Below are positions 4,314 through 37,007 of a stretch of DNA of 64,000 bases, piece after piece (the stretch's first letter is position 1; each line of letters starts with the position of its first letter). The stretch comes from Candidatus Micrarchaeia archaeon. GTDB lineage: Archaea; Micrarchaeota; Micrarchaeia; Norongarragalinales; Norongarragalinaceae. The stretch spans positions 31,880 through 95,879 of the forward strand of contig JBAZPG010000001.1 of assembly GCA_041648335.1 (NCBI GenBank). The letters are read 5' to 3'. The notes below the pieces were generated by a model, which saw only the letters and a program-made list of their open reading frames with translations, made no database searches and had not been told where the DNA came from. The position numbers and the translations under genes were made by a program.

Positions 4314-7004
4314 TCAACGCTTGCGCTTTACGCGGCGGCGCGGCTTGCGCGGCGCAGTGGACGGCTTCCGCAAAACGAAATAGTAGAGTGCAAAGCCCAC
4401 GACTACCGCAAAGGCGAGCGCAACCCACGAGAGCGCGCCGGCGAACAAGCCCGTGTAACCCGCGGGAGCGGGTGCGAGCACGAACGAGTCCAGGTAAGCG
4501 TATTCGCCCGCGTTGATGCGCGTCCACACCGTGGAGTTAGCCTCGGAGGGAGAGGACAGGCGCAACGCGATCTCGCGGCGTTCGCCGGGCGCAAGCTCGA
4601 ACGACTCGACGTCGAATGCGCCGGCCTGCGCGCTCGGGCTGAGCGTCACGGGTGCAGTGCCGTTGTTGGTCAAGAGCAGGCGCACCGCGGTCATCGTAAC
4701 GTTTCCGTCAAGATAGTAGTCCTGGCGTTCGAACTCCACGAGCACGCTGCGGCCCGACACGGAAATGGTTTCCGCGCGTTCCACGAACTTCTCGCGGGCT
4801 ACCGCGCGGAACATGGTGGCGTACGAGCCTGCGGGGCGCACGGGTTCGACTTCGAGCGAAACCACGCGCGATTCCCCGGGTATGAGCGATATCGGGGCGA
4901 CGGACGCGTTGAGTATGCGTAAGTCGTCGTTCTCCACGAAAATAACTATGTTGTTCAAGGGCGCGATGCCGTTGTTCATGAGGGTGAACGAGAGGGTGCG
5001 CGAGGCGCCTTCCTCGAACTCGGCGTTCACCGGTACGGCGAACTCGAGCAGGTAATCCTGCGTGGTGTAGTTCGGGGTCTGGTGGCCGAGGCCGCCCACC
5101 GCGTAAACCTTCGCTTGGAGCGACGCCGAACCGGAGACGCGCTCGTTTCCGGCGTGGAAAGTCAAGTCATAGGTTCCGGGTGCGGTGCTGAAGGGCGGCG
5201 AGAAGAACACGTAAGCGTGCTGGCTTTCGCCGGGCGCGAGGGTGAGCGTGGCAGGCGTTACAAACGCCCAGTTCGGTCCTTCCACGGACAAGTCCAGCGT
5301 TTCAGAGAAGCGCCCGCGGTTCGTGACGAGCAAGTCGAACGTGTTGCCCTGGCAGACCTCGACTTCCTTGAGGGAGTCCGGGGTGACCAGGATGTTGTGG
5401 CACACGCCGTGCTCGAGCACTTCGATGCCGAGCGCGGCCGAGGCAGTGGAACCGTCGCGTGCGAGCACGGTAACCGACTCTTGAGTGCCGTAATCGGCGT
5501 TCCACAGCGCGGCTACGCTCAACGTGAAGCCGGCACTCGAGAGCGCGGGAATCGAGAGCGAGTTCGGCGAAGCGGTGATTTGGAAGTTGGAGGGAACGCC
5601 CTGCAATTCAACAGTATAGTCGTCCGCCTTGGTGCCCTTGTTCTGCAACGTCGCCGCGACGGGGAGCGTTTCGCCCGGACAGATTTCCAGCGAGCCCGAG
5701 GCGAGCGAGAGTCCGGCATCGTAGCACTTCTCCACGGTGAGGCTCACGGTCTCGGATTCGGTTTCGAATTCGTTCGACGCCGTAACGCGCACGTCGTAGT
5801 CGCCTACCGCCAGCGTGCCGGGCACGCTCACCGAGAAGGATTCCTGTTCGTTGACTGCGAGGTTCACGCTCGAAGTGGAGAGCGAACCCACGGTGGTTGA
5901 AAGCGCGTAAGACGCGGCCTTGCCCTTGTTTTGGATTGTGAACGGAAGCGTGGCGGAATCGCCCTCACAGATGGAGAGCGCGTTACCCGCGATTTGCGAG
6001 TCGACTTCAACGTCGTAGAGCTTGGAAACGCAGATGCTCGTCGAGTTCGTGAACACCTTGCCGTAGCGCTGGGAAACCGCGCGCACCGCGCACGAGAACT
6101 GTTGGTTCAAGTGCGCCTGTTCGGGTTGGATGCGAAGCGGGAGCGTTATGTCCGCGCCCGAAGCGAGCGTGACTTCGTCCTGCGTGGTGGTAACGAACGA
6201 GGGGCAGGCGAGCTGGACATCGAACGAGTCCGAAATGCCCAAGTTAGTCAACGTAAAGTATTCGGTGATGTCTTCGCCCGGGTTGACTTCGATGCACGGT
6301 TCGGGCATCGCGACATTGAGGTGCGAGCAGTCGAGCACGTTCAAAACTGCGACTGACTCGCGGTAAGTGTAAAACGAGGACGCATTCAGCTTGAACGGCA
6401 ACGCTTGCGGGGGCATGTTGTTCGGCGTGTCAACGTAGAGTTGGAACTGCCTGGATTCTCCCGCACCGAGATCGAAACCAGAGTTCGCGAGCGAGTAAAG
6501 CGACGGGTCCAAGTCCGTGAACAAACTGCCTGCTTCCGGGAAAAATCCGGCGTTCTCGAGGGTGACGTCGAAGCGCGCCTCTTCACCCGAGCAAACCGAT
6601 TGTTCGGGGGTAAAGTGAAGGAGCAGATAGTGGCACTCTTGGATTGTCGAGGAGCCGCTCGCAACGAGCACGGTTCCCCTCGAACCCACGGCGCGCACGG
6701 TGAACGCATAGGTGCCCGGTACTGCGTCGCAGTGCGGGGTCATGAATGCGATTACCGCGTTCGCGGAGTGCGGCTGGGCGTCTATGGTGGGCGTCACGAA
6801 CGTGGTGAACGTGAGGTAATTCGCCTCGATAGTGAGCGTGAATACCTCGCCGTGAGCCGCGTCGTTCTGCAGGTTCAAGGTGAACTCCTGTGGGTCGCAC
6901 TGGCAACCCGAACGCGTCGAGGGTCCCGCGAAGCCCAGGCTGGACGCTGAAGCCGAGAAGGCAAAGAGCGCGAGGAGCGCGAACACGAACGCATTGTTTT
7001 TCAT
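4314..7004 (-). CDS. large secreted cell-surface protein (896 aa) with signal peptide and C-terminal TM + polybasic tail
   Basis: N-term MKNNAFVFALLALFAFSASASS; S/T/V-rich Ig-like repeats; C-term WVALAFAVVVGFALYYFVL then RKPSTAPRKPRRRVKRKR. Confidence 0.7.
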   Translation of the reverse strand: MKNNAFVFALLALFAFSASASSLGFAGPSTRSGCQCDPQEFTLNLQNDAAHGEVFTLTIEANYLTFTTFVTPTIDAQPHSANAVIAFMTPHCDAVPGTYAFTVRAVGSRGTVLVASGSSTIQECHYLLLHFTPEQSVCSGEEARFDVTLENAGFFPEAGSLFTDLDPSLYSLANSGFDLGAGESRQFQLYVDTPNNMPPQALPFKLNASSFYTYRESVAVLNVLDCSHLNVAMPEPCIEVNPGEDITEYFTLTNLGISDSFDVQLACPSFVTTTQDEVTLASGADITLPLRIQPEQAHLNQQFSCAVRAVSQRYGKVFTNSTSICVSKLYDVEVDSQIAGNALSICEGDSATLPFTIQNKGKAASYALSTTVGSLSTSSVNLAVNEQESFSVSVPGTLAVGDYDVRVTASNEFETESETVSLTVEKCYDAGLSLASGSLEICPGETLPVAATLQNKGTKADDYTVELQGVPSNFQITASPNSLSIPALSSAGFTLSVAALWNADYGTQESVTVLARDGSTASAALGIEVLEHGVCHNILVTPDSLKEVEVCQGNTFDLLVTNRGRFSETLDLSVEGPNWAFVTPATLTLAPGESQHAYVFFSPPFSTAPGTYDLTFHAGNERVSGSASLQAKVYAVGGLGHQTPNYTTQDYLLEFAVPVNAEFEEGASRTLSFTLMNNGIAPLNNIVIFVENDDLRILNASVAPISLIPGESRVVSLEVEPVRPAGSYATMFRAVAREKFVERAETISVSGRSVLVEFERQDYYLDGNVTMTAVRLLLTNNGTAPVTLSPSAQAGAFDVESFELAPGERREIALRLSSPSEANSTVWTRINAGEYAYLDSFVLAPAPAGYTGLFAGALSWVALAFAVVVGFALYYFVLRKPSTAPRKPRRRVKRKR

Positions 7005-7034
7005 TTTTAGGAATTCACCTTTTGTAACAAAAAC

Positions 7035-10000
7035 CTATTTTCCGCTTTCCTCGTTTTCCGCGAGCTTCTTGCGCGCCGAGTAAAGCAAGTATGCGCCGCC
7101 GATTGCGAGCGCTGCTATTGCCGCGAACGCGAGCTCATTCGAGAGCGAGAGCGTGAAGAAGCCGAGCCCGAGCAGGCCCGCTTCGGGCTTCAACTGAACG
7201 GGCACCGTCTTCTGGCGGCCGTCGTTCGAGCGGAGCACGAACGAGGCGGAGTAATCCGCCGCGGGGTCGAAGTCAGGACCCGTGAGGATCGTCACCTTGA
7301 TTTCCGCATTTTCTCCGGGAGCCAACGCGAGGCTCTGCGGTTCCAGCGCATAGTTCCACCCGTCGTGGAGCGCTTCAATGGAGGCGAGCGCGCCCGTGAG
7401 CGCGGCTTCGTTGCTCGAAACCATGAACGAGAACTGGAGGGCGGGGACGCCTTCGAAAGTCGTGGACACGACGGGCGACTGTTGGACCGCGAAGTTCAAC
7501 CCGTCAGCGGACGGGCTCTTCACTATGAAGTCAACCGCCTTGGTGGGCGAAACCATGCTCGGCGAGTCCGCGCGCAGCGAGAGCTGGTAAGTGCCGGGCA
7601 CGGCTGCGTTGCTCTGGATGTAGAGCTGGAGGGTGCGCTCTTGGTTCGGGGCGAGCGAGAACGCCTCGATTGGCGTGATGAACACGCCCGAAGGCAAACC
7701 CGCGATGCTAACCACTACCGAGGAGAGCGAGTAATAATTGTTGTTCTTGACCACGAAGGGCACCGCGACCGTGCCGGTTACGGGCGCCTCGATGGGCGAT
7801 TGGATGATTATCTGGAGGGCGCTCGAAACTGGCGCCTCGTACGACTGGCTGCCGCCGGTGGAGACCACGTTGATGAGCAGGTTGTTCGAGTCGAGCATGT
7901 TGCCCGAGCCGCCCGAGTAGTAGCCGCTCGAAGGCAGGTCGTAATAGGCAATGCTGAAAGTGATCGAGTCGCCTTCGAGCACGGTGTTCGGCGCCGTGGC
8001 GAGGGCGCACCCGCGTTCGGAGTCGTCCCAGGCAACCACGCGCGCACTGGTGCACGCCACGTTGTCGCCGTCGTCGTCTTCGAGTGAGGCGCCCACAGTG
8101 TAGTCGCCTTCGTCATCGTAATCGCAGGTTGCGGTGCACGAGGAGTCCTGCCCGCTTCCGGTGCAGTCCTCGGAGTCGCCGTTCCCGCAGTTTATCTCAA
8201 CATCGGGCGAGGTTATGCCGTTGCCGTAATAGCGCACGCGTACGCTTGAGGAGTCGCCGGATTCGAGGTTGTTGTCGATTACTTCGACTACGCACGAGTC
8301 CTCGCTCCAGTCGTCGCGAACCTGCACGCGGGAAGCCCACGAGTCGCACGAGTAACCCGCGATGGACGCGGTGGGCTCGTAGTAGCCCGCGTCGTCGTAT
8401 TCGCAAGTAACCGTGCAGTAGCCGTCGCTGCCGTAACAAGTACGCTCGAGTTCCTCGCCGTTGTCGCAGTCGAACTCAACATCGCGCGTGTATGAAGAAG
8501 AACCGCCGCTCGAGTGCGTGCCGTGCGCCCAGACCGCGATGGTCACGGGGTAGGCTCCGTTCTGCATGGTGTAGCCGGGTGCGGCGTGTATCTCAACGCT
8601 CGCCTCTTCACCGGATTCGAGCGCGAGCGTGGACGGACTAATGGTAATCGATTGGAAGGGCGTGGAACCCGAGACGCCCACGTCGAACGTTCCGGACAAG
8701 CGTCCGATGTTCTTGACCGTGAGGAACGAGGACGCGCCGTTCCCGCGCGTAACCGTGATGGACACGGGCGAGAGTTGGGAGTACACGAGGTACTCGCCGT
8801 CCACGCGGAAGCATAGGTCGCGTTGGTAGGCGACGGTGCCGTCCGACGCGAGTAGCTCGAAGTCAACGTGGTAGTCGCCCGCCTCGAGGTTGAACGCGTT
8901 CAAGCGGAACCAGATGGTGCGCGCCTCGCCTTCCTCGAAGTTGTAGAGGTTCTCCTGGGTGGAGAGCGAGAGGTCGTTGTCGCCTATGTGCGTGCGGTAG
9001 TCGCCCGAGAGCGCGTTGTTGTTGATTGTAAGGGACTCGAGTGCAACGCTGCTCGAGGAGTCCACAGTGTTGCAGCCGCTCCAGTCGGTTTCCCAATCAC
9101 CCGTCGAGGGCACGCTGAGCGAGACCGTGGTGGAGGCATCGTTGATGGGACTGTCCGCAGTCAACAGGAACGAGTACGAACCGGCTGAGGGCGCTTCTAC
9201 GCAGAACTCGAGGTCGCGTATTTCCTGGGGAGTAATCACGAAGTCCGGCAGGGAGAACGAGTAATCCAAGTCGCCCGAGAACGAAGAGGGCGAGGCGGAC
9301 ATTACAACGGACGCCTTGGCGAGCCCGCGGTTGCGCACGAGGAGCGCATAACACGTTTCCTGTCCGGGGTAGGCGTTCTTCGCTGACTCGAGGGCTTCGA
9401 TTTCCAAGCCGCCACTCTGGCAGGCGGGAAGCTGGACGTTCGCCGTGCACTCCGAGTTCCCGTTCGACAACGAGACGATTACGAAGTTGCCTCCCGCGAA
9501 ATCAGGTTCGATGTAAGAATAAAGATTCACGATGGTGGACGCGCCGCCCGCCAGGTAAACCGTCGCGGGTCCCTGGAGGTTGTCGCTCGAGTAAGTGAGA
9601 TAGATGGTTTGCGCCTCGTCCAGGTTGCTCGTGATTTCGAGCTGGTAGGGCTGCGGCGAAGTGGAGTACGGGCAAGTCGGGGACTTTATTACCTCGACAG
9701 TGAAATCGCATTCCGACGGATTCAGGCACACCGGGACCGTGGTGGTTTCTCCGGCGTTCACAAAAGCGGATACTTGCTCGGGCGCGTAACCCTCGTCCGA
9801 AACATCGAGCGTGTAGCTCGCGGGAGCGAGGTTGCCTATGGTGGCTTGCCCGTAAGCGTTCGTGTAGTAAACCGGGGGCTCGAGGGGAGCCCAGGGTGCG
9901 GTAGTGTACGCGTTGATGCGGGCACCCTGCAACGCATTGCCGGAATCGCAGTCGGTCACGCTCGCGATTATCGTGCCGTCGCCCTCCAAGGGCGCGACTA

Positions 10001-11669
10001 CCTTTGCCACTGCGGTGGAACACTGCTCGCCTTCAAGCGAAGCCGAGAGCGTGTAATAAACCGGATAATCCTGTTCGGTTCCGTAAGCGCACGAGGCAAT
10101 GCACGAGCCGCTGCCCGACGCGCCTTCGCACGACGCCACCGCGGTTGCGCCGTTCCCGCAGTTCACGATGACCGAATCGGGTTCAGGGTCGAATCCCTCG
10201 AAACTAACGGTAGCCACGGCGGACGCTCCGGCGCGCACCGTCGAGGGCGCCACGCTCAACGCGCATTCGCCGTCGCCGAGCGGCTGGAGCCCGACTTCAA
10301 TGTATTCCTCGGAACACAGTTCCGCGGTAACCGTGGTCGACTGGTAACCGATGCGCGAGGCGCGCACCGGATAGTCGCCTTCGGAGTAATCGTAAAAGAA
10401 CGCTTCCCCGTTCTCATCCGTTGATTCAATTGATTCGCCGTCGAACAGCACGGCTGCGCTTTCAATGGGCGCGTCCGTCACCGCGTCGTAAACGAAAACT
10501 ATCGGGTCGCATTCCACGGGTTCGGGGGTGGGTGTGGGCGTCGAGGACTGCACCGCGCTCACGACTGCGTCCGAGCATTGGAGTCCACCTATGATGGCGT
10601 CCACGTTGTAAGTAGTGGGATAGGACTGCGGGTTGTACGAACAGGCGCCGATGCACGAGCCCTGCGAGGCAGTGCCCGAGCACATGGCGGTTACCGCCGC
10701 GCCGTTACCGCAAATCACGCTGGCAGTGAACGGGCGCGAGGCGAGGTTAGCGTAGGAAACGGTTATCGTTGAGGAAGCGGGACTGTAAATCTGGGAGGGG
10801 TTCGTGGACACGGCGCACTGTGCGGGTTGCACGGGCGGCGTCGAGGCTTGCGGAGTCGAAGAAGGCGAAGGCGGCTGCTGGACGCCCACGGCGTGCACTA
10901 CGGTCGGGTTGCAGAACGTCCCTCCCGCGAGCGCATTGACATAGAATACTCCCGGCTGGGGGTACTCGCACGAAGCGTAACACTGCCCGGTCGAACCGTA
11001 ACAGCCGAACGAATAGGCGGAACGGCCGTTGCCGCAGTCCACGAAAACGTTCCAGGGCGCGTAATAAAGATTATAATAACTCACGGTGATTTCGCTCGAG
11101 CTGCCCGCGTAAATGTAGGCGGGGTAAGCGCTCAACGAACAGGACGGGGCGTAAAACCAGCCCGAAAACCAGCCGGACGACCAACCCGAAGACGATTCCT
11201 CTTCCTGCCCTTGCTCCGGAGCAGATACCGTGGGTTGGGCAACGCTTTCAACGCACCAGCTCAACCAGTTTCCGCAGTTCGAACAGCGTCCGGTCCAAAC
11301 CGCGCCGTTCGAGCCGCACGACACACCTGTGGAGCGCCGCGTCGAGGAGGCTGTGTCCGAGGGGCTAGTGCAATAGCCGTTCGACGGGTTTGTATCATAA
11401 GCGCAAACGCAACGCTGGAACGTGGGGGTGCCCGAATAACTCTGGCAGGCAGTTCCGCAAAGCTTCCCTGAAGAAATACCGCATTGGGCTGCCGAACCGA
11501 GCGTAGACGTCGAAGAAGTACAAACGATGCCGTTAGCCGAAGCGTAGTCGCCGCACGCGGCGTCGCTCGAACACGAGGGACCCCAAACCGAGCCCTGCGG
11601 GTCGAACCAAGCGCTCGCTCCCAGCGAGAACAATAGGAAAGCGAACGCGACGAACTTCAAGCTATCCAT
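7035..11669 (-). CDS. giant cell-surface protein (1544 aa) with 5 copies of a Cys-rich ~45-aa module, signal peptide and C-terminal TM anchor
   Basis: N-term MDSLKFVAFAFLLFSLGASAW; repeated CGNG..C.G...C.A.C.Y....Y module; C-term AIAALAIGGAYLLYSARKK; TATA-like GGTTTAAATACT about 44 nt upstream on the minus strand. Confidence 0.75.
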   Translation of the reverse strand: MDSLKFVAFAFLLFSLGASAWFDPQGSVWGPSCSSDAACGDYASANGIVCTSSTSTLGSAAQCGISSGKLCGTACQSYSGTPTFQRCVCAYDTNPSNGYCTSPSDTASSTRRSTGVSCGSNGAVWTGRCSNCGNWLSWCVESVAQPTVSAPEQGQEEESSSGWSSGWFSGWFYAPSCSLSAYPAYIYAGSSSEITVSYYNLYYAPWNVFVDCGNGRSAYSFGCYGSTGQCYASCEYPQPGVFYVNALAGGTFCNPTVVHAVGVQQPPSPSSTPQASTPPVQPAQCAVSTNPSQIYSPASSTITVSYANLASRPFTASVICGNGAAVTAMCSGTASQGSCIGACSYNPQSYPTTYNVDAIIGGLQCSDAVVSAVQSSTPTPTPEPVECDPIVFVYDAVTDAPIESAAVLFDGESIESTDENGEAFFYDYSEGDYPVRASRIGYQSTTVTAELCSEEYIEVGLQPLGDGECALSVAPSTVRAGASAVATVSFEGFDPEPDSVIVNCGNGATAVASCEGASGSGSCIASCAYGTEQDYPVYYTLSASLEGEQCSTAVAKVVAPLEGDGTIIASVTDCDSGNALQGARINAYTTAPWAPLEPPVYYTNAYGQATIGNLAPASYTLDVSDEGYAPEQVSAFVNAGETTTVPVCLNPSECDFTVEVIKSPTCPYSTSPQPYQLEITSNLDEAQTIYLTYSSDNLQGPATVYLAGGASTIVNLYSYIEPDFAGGNFVIVSLSNGNSECTANVQLPACQSGGLEIEALESAKNAYPGQETCYALLVRNRGLAKASVVMSASPSSFSGDLDYSFSLPDFVITPQEIRDLEFCVEAPSAGSYSFLLTADSPINDASTTVSLSVPSTGDWETDWSGCNTVDSSSSVALESLTINNNALSGDYRTHIGDNDLSLSTQENLYNFEEGEARTIWFRLNAFNLEAGDYHVDFELLASDGTVAYQRDLCFRVDGEYLVYSQLSPVSITVTRGNGASSFLTVKNIGRLSGTFDVGVSGSTPFQSITISPSTLALESGEEASVEIHAAPGYTMQNGAYPVTIAVWAHGTHSSGGSSSYTRDVEFDCDNGEELERTCYGSDGYCTVTCEYDDAGYYEPTASIAGYSCDSWASRVQVRDDWSEDSCVVEVIDNNLESGDSSSVRVRYYGNGITSPDVEINCGNGDSEDCTGSGQDSSCTATCDYDDEGDYTVGASLEDDDGDNVACTSARVVAWDDSERGCALATAPNTVLEGDSITFSIAYYDLPSSGYYSGGSGNMLDSNNLLINVVSTGGSQSYEAPVSSALQIIIQSPIEAPVTGTVAVPFVVKNNNYYSLSSVVVSIAGLPSGVFITPIEAFSLAPNQERTLQLYIQSNAAVPGTYQLSLRADSPSMVSPTKAVDFIVKSPSADGLNFAVQQSPVVSTTFEGVPALQFSFMVSSNEAALTGALASIEALHDGWNYALEPQSLALAPGENAEIKVTILTGPDFDPAADYSASFVLRSNDGRQKTVPVQLKPEAGLLGLGFFTLSLSNELAFAAIAALAIGGAYLLYSARKKLAENEESGK

Positions 11670-11787: not shown

Positions 11788-11915
11788 GGGGTCATGGTAT
11801 AACTTGGCAGAACAGCAGGCTCCAGTATGCGCTGGAGCGCGGAGCGCTTCCCTTTGAAGGGGCGCGATGAAATTGAAGAAACCTGCGGATCGGGGTTCGA
11901 ATCCCCGTGACCCCA
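11788..11915 (+). tRNA. tRNA-Trp (anticodon CCA) with a 55-nt canonical intron (11826-11880) between positions 37/38; no encoded CCA
   Basis: Hand fold: acceptor GGGGTCA/TGACCCC, D-arm GTAT..GAAC, anticodon stem GCAGG/CCTGC, loop CUCCAGA(U33, CCA, G37), T-arm CGGGG-TTCGAAT-CCCCG, discriminator A; anticodon loop CTCCAG pairs with intron CTGGAG (11832-11837) as expected for a bulge-helix-bulge substrate. Confidence 0.8.
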
Positions 11916-32922: not shown

Positions 32923-34050
32923 ATGCTCAGAGGAGGGTGTTGCATTTTGAAGAAAATCTTTTTGCTGTTGACCGCGTGTTTCCTGTTGGCGGGTTGCATT
33001 GAAAGCGAACCGGAACCCTCGTGGGTTCCCGAAACCGGGGTTACGCCCTCGCCGGCAATCGAACCCACGCCGTCGCCTTCGCCAACGGCGAACGCCACGC
33101 CCTCGGTTTTACCGTCGCCCACCATTGCTGCGACGCCGTCGCCGAGCCCGTCGCCTTCACCCGAACCCAGCGAGATGCCCTCGTGCTCCATCACATTACA
33201 ATCGCTTGGAACCGCGCAGAAACGCGTAATCGTCTCGTTCGTGAACATCCTGGAGAACGAAGCCGAAATACGGTGCTCACCCGTCTCGGCATGGCACGAA
33301 TTCGATTTGAACGCCCAGAAAACAGGATACTACGACTGCCAGTACGTCCAAAACGCCACGTCGTTCACTTACACGGCGACCGCGCGCGCGGGAACCGTGG
33401 AATGCCAAGTCGCGATAATCATCGACGCGTCCTCTTACTCGTACGAATGGACGGTCACGCCCTCGAGCGACGCGTTCACGATTGAGAAAACCGTTGGCAA
33501 CACCACGACGCGTTCGTACTCGCTCAACAACACGGGCACCGGAACGCTTGCGAGCGTTAACGCAACGTCCAGCCAAACTTGGGCAACGCTTTCCTCGATT
33601 TCGTCGAGCGTCTCGCCAGCGGCAGTTGGAAGCGCAGGATTCCTGTTCAACGCCGCAAGCTTGAGCGTTGGCACGCACACGGCTACGTTAACATTCTCGG
33701 CGGCTAACGCAGCGAACAAGACGGTTGCGGTAACGCTCACGGTTACGGAAACCGCCACACTCGTGCCGTCGTGCACCACCGCGTCCGCGAGCCCGGCAAC
33801 CGTGAACACCACCGCGGGACCGAACACCTCGGTGATAACAATGAACTACCTTGGTTTCGCGGGAGTGTTAACGCCAGTATTCTCCTGCGGCTTCGGAATC
33901 GCGCCTGTTGGCGCCTGCGGGCTCACGCCCGCCGGCTCGTGCACCGCCACGTGCGATTACGCGGGCGCGCCCGTTGCGGCTTACGCTGCGACGAGCAGCT
34001 TGAACGGAACCGTGTGCTCGGGAAGCGTTGCGGTCACCGTACAGAATTGA
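32923..34050 (+). CDS. secreted Cys-rich protein, lipoprotein-like signal (..LLAGC), PSPSP linker, C-terminal copy of the Cys-rich module seen in the giant surface protein
   Basis: MKKIFLLLTACFLLAGCIES; C-terminal FSCGFGIAPVGACGLTPAGSCTATCDYAGAP.. Confidence 0.65.
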   Translation: MLRGGCCILKKIFLLLTACFLLAGCIESEPEPSWVPETGVTPSPAIEPTPSPSPTANATPSVLPSPTIAATPSPSPSPSPEPSEMPSCSITLQSLGTAQKRVIVSFVNILENEAEIRCSPVSAWHEFDLNAQKTGYYDCQYVQNATSFTYTATARAGTVECQVAIIIDASSYSYEWTVTPSSDAFTIEKTVGNTTTRSYSLNNTGTGTLASVNATSSQTWATLSSISSSVSPAAVGSAGFLFNAASLSVGTHTATLTFSAANAANKTVAVTLTVTETATLVPSCTTASASPATVNTTAGPNTSVITMNYLGFAGVLTPVFSCGFGIAPVGACGLTPAGSCTATCDYAGAPVAAYAATSSLNGTVCSGSVAVTVQN

Positions 34051-34789
34051 ACGCTTGAGAGAGTTCCACGAGCTCTTCCACGGTGAGCGAACGCACCTTG
34101 CGCTCCTTCAACGCGAGCGAGTCCGAGAAATCGGCTAGCTCGCCCTTGCTTTTGGAGAGTTGACGCTCCGAATGGCGCAGGGCGTTGCGCACGCTCTGGT
34201 TCTTGTGCTGGAACAAGGCGTTGACGAGGTTCGCGTCCACGGGTGCGGCTTCGTGGCGTTCGAGTTTCACGATGGCTGAATCCACGCGGGGCTTCGGGTC
34301 AAAGCACTCCGCAGGTACGAAACCGATTGTCTCCGCATCGGCGTAAGCGGCAGTCATCACGGTGAGCCGCGAGTATTCGCGCGAGTCCGGCAGAGCCGAA
34401 AGACGCTGCACGAACTCCTTTTGTAACATGAACACCGCCAGCGGGGTGCGGGACTCGAGGAAGCGGAACAACAGTGGGGACGACAGGTGGTAAGGTAGGT
34501 TTCCGTAGATTGCGTCAAAGCCATCGAAGGAATATTCGAGCGCGTCCCCGCGCATCACGGTCACGTTCTTGACTTTTGAAAAATCGCCCGCGAGCTTTTC
34601 AGCGAGTCGCGAGTCTATTTCAAGCGCGGTGACGTGCTTGGCGCGTTCCGCGAGCTCGCGAGTCAACGCCCCCGCACCAGCCCCGATTTCCAGCACGCGT
34701 TTGCCCTTCAGGGGGATTGCGTCCGCGATTAAACGGGCTATGGCTGGCGAATTCAGGAACACCTGACTCAAGCGCTTGTACTGGCGCAC
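34034..34789 (-). CDS. ksgA: 16S rRNA (adenine1518/1519-N6)-dimethyltransferase KsgA/Dim1
   Basis: QVFL, VLEIGAGAGALT, GNLPY motifs. Confidence 0.9.
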   Translation of the reverse strand: MRQYKRLSQVFLNSPAIARLIADAIPLKGKRVLEIGAGAGALTRELAERAKHVTALEIDSRLAEKLAGDFSKVKNVTVMRGDALEYSFDGFDAIYGNLPYHLSSPLLFRFLESRTPLAVFMLQKEFVQRLSALPDSREYSRLTVMTAAYADAETIGFVPAECFDPKPRVDSAIVKLERHEAAPVDANLVNALFQHKNQSVRNALRHSERQLSKSKGELADFSDSLALKERKVRSLTVEELVELSQAFNSVR

Positions 34790-34793
34790 GGCT

Positions 34794-35357
34794 CTAGTAC
34801 CCGTCTTCCTTCTTTATGGGCTTCGAGAAAAGGTAGTACTTCGCGTCCCCGCCGAGCTCGTGCTCGATGCGCTGGGCGATTAGATCCTCGATGCGTCCGA
34901 GGTGGGGGACGCGCGCGTGCACGTCCGCGAACGACTCGAACGGCTTCTTCTCGCGCTGCTCCAAGAGGACGGTGAGGTGCTTCTTGCCGACTGCAGGCAA
35001 GTGCTCGAGGGAGTGCGAACGGATGTTGATTGCCCCCGCGCGGTTCAGGAACTCCACGAAACGCGGCTCGCGCTCCTTCACTATGCGTAGGAGCTGGGTG
35101 CGGCACTCGTGCTGGGCTGCGTTAGTCAACTCGCGCCAGGTGATGCGCCCCTTGATGCGGTCGATTTTCGGGCGCTCGTCCTTGCCCACGTAAACGGTTT
35201 CGCCGGGCGAGAGCACCACGCCCAACTTAGGGGTGGCTTCGAGTAGGGTGAACTGCGCGTCGCCCAACAGCTGGACTACGGGCTCCTTGCGCGCCTCCGC
35301 GGACTTGCCGTATGGAAGGAAATCCAAAACCAGTGCCTGCTCTTCCCTGCCGAACAT
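34794..35357 (-). CDS. DUF655/COG1491 nucleic-acid-binding protein (HhH)
   Basis: conserved position between rpoF and ksgA; HhH-like FLNRAG..L..LPAVG. Confidence 0.65.
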   Translation of the reverse strand: MFGREEQALVLDFLPYGKSAEARKEPVVQLLGDAQFTLLEATPKLGVVLSPGETVYVGKDERPKIDRIKGRITWRELTNAAQHECRTQLLRIVKEREPRFVEFLNRAGAINIRSHSLEHLPAVGKKHLTVLLEQREKKPFESFADVHARVPHLGRIEDLIAQRIEHELGGDAKYYLFSKPIKKEDGY

Positions 35358-35404
35358 GTTCTTCTAACCCCTTAGTTTTCTTGTTTCCGGGAATAATAAG
35401 GCTT

Positions 35405-35746
35405 TCAGGCTTTCGAGGGCTTGAACTTTTTGATGAGCGCGGTGATTTCCTTCACCTGGTCCTCGGACACAGGATGCTCCGTCTCAACGCCGAGCACTAC
35501 CTTGATTTCCGTGGGCTTGCCGGGCAGGATGTTCACGAGAAGCGCGATTTGCGCTTCCGTGAGGCAGTCGAGCGCCTTGAGTTGTTTCGCGAGGTCCTTC
35601 GCCTTCTTGACGGGCAGGTAAGAGAACTGCTGGAGGTAGTCGAGGGTGTTCTGCTGCTCGTAGCTGAGCTCGCCCTCCTTCTGGCGTTTCTCCATAATTT
35701 CGCGTGCCTCAGCGAGGCTTACGGGCTTTTCCTTCAACGACTGCAT
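35405..35746 (-). CDS. rpoF: DNA-directed RNA polymerase subunit F (Rpo4/Rpb4)
   Basis: 113 aa, conserved L21e-RpoF-DUF655-KsgA synteny, sequence similarity to RpoF. Confidence 0.75.
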   Translation of the reverse strand: MQSLKEKPVSLAEAREIMEKRQKEGELSYEQQNTLDYLQQFSYLPVKKAKDLAKQLKALDCLTEAQIALLVNILPGKPTEIKVVLGVETEHPVSEDQVKEITALIKKFKPSKA

Positions 35747-35753
35747 TTTTCAT

Positions 35754-36035
35754 TCACCGTAAAACCGTCATGTGCAGGTTCGACAATATGAGGAGCTTGC
35801 GTTTGCCGCCGTCCATTACGACGACTTCGTAAGCCTTCCCGCGCTTCGCCTGGATGACGCCCACCTTGTTCTTGAACCGCAAGTTGCTCGGCCGCCCCTT
35901 CTGGCGGGACGGGTCCGGGGTGATGCGCACGCGGTCCCCTTCCTTGAGGACGCGCAGCTGGCGCGTGATGGACGCTTTCCCCAGGCTATTGAAATTCCTG
36001 CCGTGTTTCGAATAAACGCCTTTTGAACGCTTCAA
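35754..36035 (-). CDS. rpl21e: 50S ribosomal protein L21e
   Basis: MKRSKGVYSKHGRNF...GDRV...P...KG.P..RF.GK.G.I. Confidence 0.85.
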   Translation of the reverse strand: MKRSKGVYSKHGRNFNSLGKASITRQLRVLKEGDRVRITPDPSRQKGRPSNLRFKNKVGVIQAKRGKAYEVVVMDGGKRKLLILSNLHMTVLR

Positions 36036-36143
36036 GATAAACCACCTGCTAAAAACCGGTTGACGAAAAACATTTGCGCACGGGATTATTAAAACCTTGT
36101 CCCGCGCGTTTAAAAATACCTTTTTAAACCCCGTGGGGTAAAG

Positions 36144-36151
36144 TTTTTAAA
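36144..36151 (+). promoter_or_regulatory. TATA box TTTTTAAA about 24 nt before ATG 36175 (leaderless transcript likely); second TATA-like TTTAAAAATA at 36109-36118
   Basis: read directly. Confidence 0.4.
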
Positions 36152-36174
36152 GGCATTTGTGGGTGGTCGGTCGT

Positions 36175-36504
36175 ATGGTAAAGAGCAAGGCTCCTAAGAT
36201 GAACGTGAACTTCAAAGTCGAGAACATAGTCGCTAGCGCCGCGTTGGGCGTGGAACTCGACTTGTTCAACATCGCGATGCACCTGAACAACGTGGAATAC
36301 GAGCCGGAACAGTTCCCGGGCGCCATAATGCGCCTCAAAGACATCGGCACCACGCTCCTCCTGTTCAAGAACGGGAAGGTAATCTGCTCGGGCGCGAAGA
36401 GCGAGGCCCAGATTGCGAAGAGCATCCGCAAGGCGTCCGAGATACTCAAGAAGTACGTTAAGAAGCCGGACGCGAAGAAGCCCGAAGTAAAGAAAACCGC
36501 GTGA
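36175..36504 (+). CDS. single-repeat TATA-binding-protein-like protein (one TBP fold repeat + Lys-rich tail)
   Basis: KVENIVASAALGVELDLFNIAMHLNNVEYEPEQFPGAIMRLKDIGTTLLLFKNGKVICSGAKSEAQIAKSIRKA aligns with a TBP repeat (ENIVAS..LDL....EYEPEQFPG..YR...P....LLF.SGK.V.TGAKS); only about 109 aa; the ORF track shows a TTG-extended start at 36157. Confidence 0.7.
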   Translation: MVKSKAPKMNVNFKVENIVASAALGVELDLFNIAMHLNNVEYEPEQFPGAIMRLKDIGTTLLLFKNGKVICSGAKSEAQIAKSIRKASEILKKYVKKPDAKKPEVKKTA

Positions 36505-36537
36505 GAAAGCGTTTTAAACCAGGGCGTCAACAGTACT

Positions 36538-36656
36538 AGCGGACAGCGGTCATAGGAGAGGGGCATACGCTCGTTCCCGTTCCGAACACGAAAGCAAAGC
36601 CCTCTTACGACTTCGCGAGTACTGTCTTATGACGGGAAAGCGGGTTGCTGCTGCCA
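36538..36656 (+). rRNA. rrf: 5S ribosomal RNA (stand-alone)
   Basis: CGGUCAUAG...GGGG.CAUAC...UUCCGAAC.CGAAAG..AAGCCC...GAGUACUG... collinear with archaeal 5S; ends uncertain by a few nt. Confidence 0.7.
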
Positions 36657-36689
36657 CTCTTTGAACTCCGAGCGCGAGCGCCGCTAAAC

Positions 36690-36881
36690 CTACTTTCCGT
36701 ATTTCTTCGAGAGGCGGTTGAGCTCCTTCAAAAGCGGCTTCCGCCAGTCGTCCTCCAACTGCGACTTAATCAGCTTAATCGTTGCTGCGTCTTGTTTTGA
36801 AGGATTCGTTTTTTCAAGCGACTTGCATTTCGACAGGATTTCGACGTCGATTGCAGTCGGCAACGGGTACTTCTTTGTCAT
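36690..36881 (-). CDS. small hypothetical protein (63 aa)
   Basis: ORF only. Confidence 0.3.
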   Translation of the reverse strand: MTKKYPLPTAIDVEILSKCKSLEKTNPSKQDAATIKLIKSQLEDDWRKPLLKELNRLSKKYGK

Positions 36882-37007
36882 AAACGAATGAACCGCGGAT
36901 GGAATTAAACGGTTTGCCCGCCAATTCGGGCGGCTAAGTAAAACTTATTTAAACGGACTCGCGAGCGCCGCGAAGGTTAAAAAGCGCGCGCGGGTTAATG
37001 CTGACTT

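Follow-up and report, generated by a model that had tools for sequence, protein, structure and literature searches.

A single-repeat gene at the TBP locus of Micrarchaeota and its possible role as a homodimeric TATA-binding protein

TBP, the TATA-binding protein, is a textbook case of a protein that goes back to an ancient internal duplication. That duplication is assumed to have been a single event, fixed since before the divergence of archaea and eukaryotes. To our knowledge, the two-repeat TBP is treated as universal in both groups. Evolutionary analyses likewise assume one TBP duplication with no later homogenization of the repeats (PMC4910066). Across 34 classical species the two repeats are 39.9-61.5% identical in DNA and fall into two separate clades, read as one ancient duplication (PMC4910066). 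Proteins with a single TBP domain are known from Halobacterium and the Thermococcales. Halobacterium TbpA is monopartite and close to full TBPs; it is one of several paralogues, coexists with them and is non-essential (PMC3597702). The monopartite TBP-domain proteins of the Thermococcales, of about 82-136 aa (P. furiosus NP_578195), are diverged, form their own cluster and occur beside a normal TBP (PMC3597702).

We examined a 64-kb stretch of DNA from a Candidatus Micrarchaeia archaeon, hereafter the window, in which a first-pass annotation had proposed a stand-alone gene of about 109 aa encoding one TBP repeat. The gene is real (Table 1). Translated from the ATG at 36175, its product is MVKSKAPKMNVNFKVENIVASAALGVELDLFNIAMHLNNVEYEPEQFPGAIMRLKDIGTTLLLFKNGKVICSGAKSEAQIAKSIRKASEILKKYVKKPDAKKPEVKKTA. 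Pfam PF00352 recognizes a single TBP domain, with residues 12-94 matching the entire profile (positions 1-85 of 85; E = 7e-29), at 99.9 bits; the cut-off is 22.9 bits, and the protein scores as a member of the TBP repeat family across the whole repeat. It holds one repeat only, not the two in tandem in one polypeptide that characterize a canonical TBP. The proposed absence of a second repeat downstream in any frame also held up, as tblastn with the window protein recovered no other TBP-like segment in the six frames of the 64-kb window (next best E = 1.9). The protein ends in a Lys-rich tail, KKYVKKPDAKKPEVKKTA, and, as first described, a 5S rRNA gene found with Rfam follows, beginning 37 nt past the stop codon. 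Tails of relatives range from 0 to about 12 aa, and basic N-terminal extensions are common. The mechanical ORF begins at a TTG (36157), but the ATG is the likely start because the TTTAAA box at 36146 lies 29 nt before it. The region originally delimited, 36036-36504, does contain the gene, but position 36036 is the start of the intergenic region and not of the gene.

Table 1. Features of the one-repeat TBP locus, in window coordinates.
Feature	Position	Strand	Evidence and remarks
Divergent conserved block	34034-36035	-	KsgA, DUF655, Rpo4/F, L21e; Pfam; marks canonical TBP locus
KsgA	34034-34789	-	Pfam
DUF655	34794-35357	-	Pfam
Rpo4/F (RNA polymerase subunit)	35405-35746	-	Pfam
L21e	35754-36035	-	Pfam
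Two more TTTAAA boxes	36109-36114, 36123-36128	.	Divergent L21e/TBP intergenic region
TTTAAA TATA-like box	36146-36151	+	29 nt 5' of TBP ATG; likely promoter of a putative leaderless TBP mRNA
One-repeat TBP CDS	36175-36504	+	109 aa plus stop; ORF list, Pfam PF00352, one domain
Single TBP repeat, residues 12-94	36208-36456	+	Pfam; holds S1 FKVENIVASA, stirrup EYEPEQFPG, Phe47, Phe64
Lys-rich C-terminal tail, YVKKPDAKKPEVKKTA	36457-36501	+	Direct sequence reading
TTTAAA box	36513-36518	+	29 nt 5' of 5S rRNA start, 9 nt past TBP stop codon
5S rRNA gene	36542-36656	+	Rfam RF00001, 60.8 bits vs gathering score 38; 37 nt past TBP stop

The divergent intergenic region between L21e and the one-repeat gene is 139 bp long. 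Two TATA-like boxes had been counted upstream of the gene; there are three TTTAAA boxes (36109, 36123 and 36146). The spacing of the nearest box is the same, 29 nt, for the TBP ATG and for the 5S rRNA start, and judged from this spacing the TBP mRNA is probably leaderless. Close relatives (L003, L007 and L048) also have a TTTAAA box 29-30 nt 5' of the one-repeat gene. Boxes of the TTTAAA type are ordinary in archaea. The palindromic hexamer occurs 21 times in the window against about 6 expected, and the sites listed are the three above and those at 36513, 11751, 511 and 31083. Four starts (the TBP ATG, the 5S gene and two further ORFs) are preceded by TTTAAA at 28-29 nt, and a tRNA is preceded by it at 37 nt. 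From these sites the core of this organism's TATA box would seem to have two-fold symmetry, and the palindromic form might be an adaptation to a symmetric TBP. Other genomes also have the 5S rRNA gene 3' of the one-repeat gene. It is about 0.05-2.1 kb away in 22 group-A loci; in L058, L066, L077 and L078 the distance is about 1 kb. At 17 two-repeat loci, no 5S rRNA gene turned up within 4 kb on either side of the TBP gene.

An identical protein is deposited at NCBI as MFA4945978.1, 'MAG: hypothetical protein WC607_00340 [Candidatus Micrarchaeia archaeon]'. The name hypothetical was given because one repeat matches just half of each NCBIfam TBP model. Against these models (PRK00394) the window protein scored 58-91 bits, with a best score of 91.4, while the cut-offs are 181-347 bits, and every model failed. 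With one-repeat proteins named hypothetical, automated surveys will therefore score such genomes as lacking TBP. The annotation and the scores far under the full-length cut-offs would also suit an artefact or a decaying pseudogene, that is, a truncated TBP remnant produced by mis-assembly, frameshift or recent deletion. We give this explanation next to no credence. The identical ORF also stands on a 533,585-bp contig at ENA. In another sample, a JGI contig (L002) carries a gene for a 109-aa protein 98% identical to the window protein, and the two genes differ at 9 nt, with 7 synonymous differences and 2 conservative changes in the tail. The gene is moreover conserved in 51 more species with a dN/dS of about 0.08 and saturated synonymous sites, and it has a proper TATA-like box 29 nt upstream. 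Assembly error was rejected, given the same ORF in independent assemblies and samples and a 98% variant that is mostly synonymous. A second repeat concealed by an assembly or frameshift error, the outcome that the first-pass annotation had said would overturn its reading, is excluded by the independent assemblies, the 98% variant and the 51 further species. Neither tblastn of the window nor phmmer on the stop-to-stop ORFs of 82 loci found a hidden repeat.

Other features of the window were recorded. Compared with strain L002, which is 98% identical, the window has about 275 bp inserted at 36685-36959; the insertion is flanked by a 12-bp repeat (CGCGAGCGCCGC) and contains a 63-aa ORF (36690-36881, - strand) that has no Pfam match. 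The tRNA at 11788-11915 was found with Rfam (43.3 bits, full model) and not with ARAGORN, which reports no tRNA in the window; its span of 128 nt presumably reflects a long intron. Two very large adjacent ORFs of 896 and 1544 aa (4314-11669, - strand) have Ig-like, CARDB, NPCBM_assoc and CarboxypepD_reg domains and are probably surface proteins.

To find relatives we scanned one genome per GTDB species for the exact peptide words FKNGKVIC and NNVEYEPE, a search that would miss a divergent paralogue. It returned 80 loci, which were read out by translating every stop-to-stop ORF and searching with the window protein. A one-repeat ORF of about 91-122 aa is present at 52 of these loci (L003-L053, L055), all from Micrarchaeota MAGs, several of them labelled Norongarragalinales. 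They represent 51 species because L052 duplicates the L053 contig. The proteins of these 51 other species are 75-88% identical to the window protein, and none of the 52 loci has a second repeat within 4 kb on either side in any frame. Eleven more divergent one-repeat loci were also found (L058, L064, L066, L068, L069, L072, L073, L075, L077, L078 and L082). Normal two-repeat TBPs are encoded at 17 of the 80 loci. In a bootstrapped neighbor-joining tree of the repeats the main one-repeat group is monophyletic (100/100) and two further one-repeat clades are supported (bootstrap 92 and 100), with values of 44-62% at several nodes for the deep order of the three. A search of 1.84 billion cluster representatives yielded only three one-stretch proteins among the best 150 matches: a group-A representative, a clade-2 representative and a one-repeat protein with a K/R-rich tail (P0189). 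The last, 183 aa long and from a Logan contig of 1164 bp, joins one TBP repeat to a histone-H1-like tail, about 90 aa long and extremely rich in Lys/Arg, which takes the basic tail of the window protein to an extreme.

Split genes occur in other DPANN archaea. A divergent second one-repeat gene elsewhere in the genome could likewise supply the other half of a split TBP that works as a heterodimer. Such a partner would be missed by the scan if it lacked the two words, and two one-repeat genes per genome can occur, as L072 carries two copies 1269 bp apart. At 97% identity the L072 copies are duplicates rather than halves that have become differentiated. No second repeat is present in the 64-kb window or within 4 kb of the gene in the 51 species, and the only other genome with two apparent copies is a binning duplicate (L052/L053). 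The unusually high conservation described below also suits a chain that pairs with itself better than one specialized half. We thus consider a split TBP improbable.

The word scan showed no second differentiated copy in the one-repeat genomes. The apparent second copy in MAG JAZDKC01 was rejected as a paralogue, as L052 is 100% identical over 4814 bp to the contig of another MAG. This 4814-bp contig is part of the MAG JBDRLB01 contig (L053) and was binned into two species-representative genomes. The copies in L072 (3983-4291 and 5252-5566, 97% identical over 300 nt) lie away from the L21e locus. They could be an assembly duplication, or else the beginning of a return to a two-repeat gene.

The position of the gene on the chromosome bears on what it does. 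The two-repeat TBP is divergent from L21e-Rpo4-DUF655 in all 19 two-repeat relatives compared (the 17 scan loci, P0001 and P0008). The one-repeat gene adjoins the same genes in 48 of 51 species and, since it lies in the same place, is the positional ortholog of the ordinary TBP. Its presence in the place held by the two-repeat TBP in sister lineages points to a secondary reduction rather than a relic. The earlier suggestion that the gene resembles the pre-duplication ancestor is thus borne out for its architecture but not for relic status. As judged from the locus, the one-repeat gene would replace the canonical TBP rather than add to it.

Sequence conservation is high. The 53 one-repeat sequences align without gaps over 88 columns; 53 columns do not vary and a further 10 reach 90% conservation or more, in keeping with the strongly conserved core noted at first. 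Median pN of the one-repeat genes is 0.12 and median pS 0.79 (saturated); over 512 measurable pairs dN/dS has a median of 0.08 and a maximum of 0.28. The median identity to the window protein is 80% for TBP, compared with 42% for L21e, 41% for Rpo4, 56% for DUF655, 47% for KsgA and 43% for Trm5. DUF655 identity was used as the yardstick for organismal divergence. For pairs at 50-60% DUF655 identity, the one-repeat TBPs are 85% identical and the two-repeat TBPs 64%. Evolution slower than that of the two-repeat TBP fits a chain that may be obliged to serve as both halves of the saddle. A gene that is accessory or decaying would be expected to evolve faster, not slower.

These data also bear on whether the protein is an accessory factor derived from TBP, with a normal two-repeat TBP encoded elsewhere and the one-repeat protein modulating transcription, for instance through competition for TATA boxes or TFB, as proposed for TbpA. 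The monopartite TBP-domain proteins described so far all coexist with full TBPs (PMC3597702), and the 64 kb inspected belong to a genome of at least 533 kb, with a scan of relatives that was word-based and non-exhaustive. We nonetheless find an accessory role unlikely, though it is the strongest of the rival readings: the gene sits where sister lineages hold the canonical TBP, and its conservation exceeds that of two-repeat TBPs at equal divergence as well as that of the neighboring ribosomal and RNA polymerase genes. A weak further point is that, among the 120 best two-repeat matches listed, none falls on a contig that agrees in length with a group-A contig. If the one-repeat gene has taken the place of the canonical TBP, the genome beyond the 64 kb read (of at least 533 kb) would probably lack a full-length TBP.

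The motifs by which TBP contacts DNA and TFB are intact in the one-repeat protein. Each TBP repeat gives two intercalating Phe residues, one in QFPG and one in the LIF/LLF strand; the TBP stirrup, E-Y-E-P-E-Q/L-F-P-G, is the docking site of TFB/TFIIB. In alignments with solved TBPs, F47 (QFPG) and F64 (LLLF) of the window protein fall on the Phe residues of both repeats, and they are invariant. The stirrup EYEPEQFPG is invariant in the 53 one-repeat and 99 two-repeat sequences. The window repeat can be aligned gap-free with each repeat of M. jannaschii TBP (2z8u; 65.9 and 65.1 bits) and of P. woesei TBP (1ais; 55.6 and 72.3 bits), and the protein scores 129-132 bits against solved archaeal TBPs. 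Its identity to Micrarchaeota TBP repeats is 50-69%.

An artificial tandem, made of two repeats joined by their own tail, was modelled with an alignment of 99 two-repeat TBPs and reached a pLDDT of 89.5 and a pTM of 0.80. From the single sequence, AlphaFold gave a pLDDT of 41.6. The 44 best PDB matches of the tandem model were all TBPs; for the leading free-standing TBP chains, over the full length, TM was 0.83-0.89 (target-normalized) and rmsd 2.2-3.0 A. As modelled, the repeat sequence is compatible with both positions in the saddle. The model is weak with respect to dimerization because the tandem is covalent and driven by the two-repeat alignment, and it is no proof of a non-covalent dimer.

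We favor the reading that the one-repeat gene encodes the working TBP of its lineage and that the protein acts as a symmetric homodimer, with a probability of roughly 60%. Support for the homodimer is indirect: positional orthology, purifying selection, intact DNA and TFB motifs and the tandem saddle model would all agree with it. We infer that the one-repeat protein dimerizes and binds TATA DNA and TFB. The gene would be the lineage's own TBP, reduced from two repeats to one. Two 109-aa chains would pair via their central S1 strands into a ten-stranded saddle with exact two-fold symmetry, the concave face of which may bind the minor groove of TTTAAA-type TATA boxes. F47 and F64 of each chain would kink the DNA at both ends, and TFB could dock on either of the two identical EYEPEQFPG stirrups. 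The direction of transcription in archaea is fixed by the contact of TFB with the BRE. With a symmetric TBP, direction would be set by that contact and not by TBP. The basic tails might add unspecific affinity for DNA. A broader claim, that an order-level Micrarchaeota clade and at least two further clades run all their transcription on a homodimeric one-repeat TBP without any two-repeat TBP, we regard as evenly balanced.

How the second repeat was lost may be read from relatives that still have two. In 65 outside cluster representatives, the two repeats of a protein have a median protein identity of 39%. In the two-repeat TBPs of Micrarchaeota, the identity between R1 and R2 is 54-82% for protein and 62-80% for DNA, and 87% for DNA in P0001. 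The repeats of P0001 (L083:3577-4125) differ by a single nt over a tract of 64 codons, the flanks differing by 1-3 nt per codon. L061 (P0014) has a 31-codon tract that is DNA-identical between the repeats, again with diverged flanks. By their sequence pattern, both are tracts of gene conversion between repeats. Such tracts in two-repeat relatives suggest a collapse to one repeat by intragenic recombination. The one-repeat state would most likely have arisen by in-frame recombination between repeats already homogenized by gene conversion. Recombination of near-identical direct repeats, if resolved as a deletion, would take out precisely one repeat and keep the reading frame.

R1 and R2 of the same protein also cluster together in the tree (L062, 87% bootstrap; P0001, 62%), and such clustering in several lineages would fit re-duplication too. 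The window repeat is equidistant from R1 and R2 of relatives, with 0.55-0.66 identity to each. It is marginally nearer R2 of outside TBPs, with equal scores for the two repeats of M. jannaschii and a higher one for repeat 2 of P. woesei. Comparison with the repeats of relatives gave no signal of a chimeric origin from the N-terminal part of R1 and the C-terminal part of R2. Separately, two TBP-family proteins have three (P0125, 272 aa) and four (P0124, 376 aa) repeat matches, which shows that the number of TBP repeats can also rise. The first repeat of P0125 is duplicated almost exactly.

If a homodimeric one-repeat protein is indeed the sole TBP of these archaea, the TBP duplication would be reversible. 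The phylum may then cycle through gene conversion, collapse to one repeat and re-duplication, and these genomes would hold natural, living versions of the pre-duplication state. They would offer a natural system in which to ask whether a symmetric homodimer can do the job of TBP, how promoter polarity is achieved without TBP asymmetry, and how duplicated folds are gained and lost.

Within the literature that could be searched, we found no report of a one-repeat TBP in Micrarchaeota or DPANN genomics or in work on archaeal transcription, and neither TBP nor K03120 is listed in the supplement of a paper on Micrarchaeota genomics (PMC12892359). Compared with the canonical archaeal TBP of about 180-190 aa (two PF00352 repeats; PDB 1AIS, 2Z8U, 1MP9), the window protein shares the repeat family, the DNA-kinking Phe pair, the EYEPEQFPG stirrup and the chromosomal neighborhood of sister lineages. 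It differs in having one repeat per polypeptide, so that a saddle would need two chains and be exactly symmetric, and in having basic rather than acidic termini. Like Halobacterium TbpA, it is a single domain that clusters with true TBP repeats (50-69% identity for the window protein), but the gene is at the canonical locus, occurs in at least 52 species and is under more constraint than two-repeat TBPs. With the monopartite proteins of the Thermococcales it shares a small, stand-alone form and one TBP fold; it lacks their strong divergence, as its Pfam match (E = 7e-29) and its 129-132 bits to solved TBPs attest. The hypothetical single-repeat prototype that preceded the TBP duplication (PMC4910066, PMC3597702) would have had the same self-associating one-repeat architecture. 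The window gene differs from it in that synteny and similarity to the two-repeat TBPs of Micrarchaeota indicate secondary loss and not survival of the ancestor. Single-domain TBP proteins are already known, and what sets this gene apart is that a genuine TBP repeat occupies the canonical locus, in a large clade and under higher constraint.
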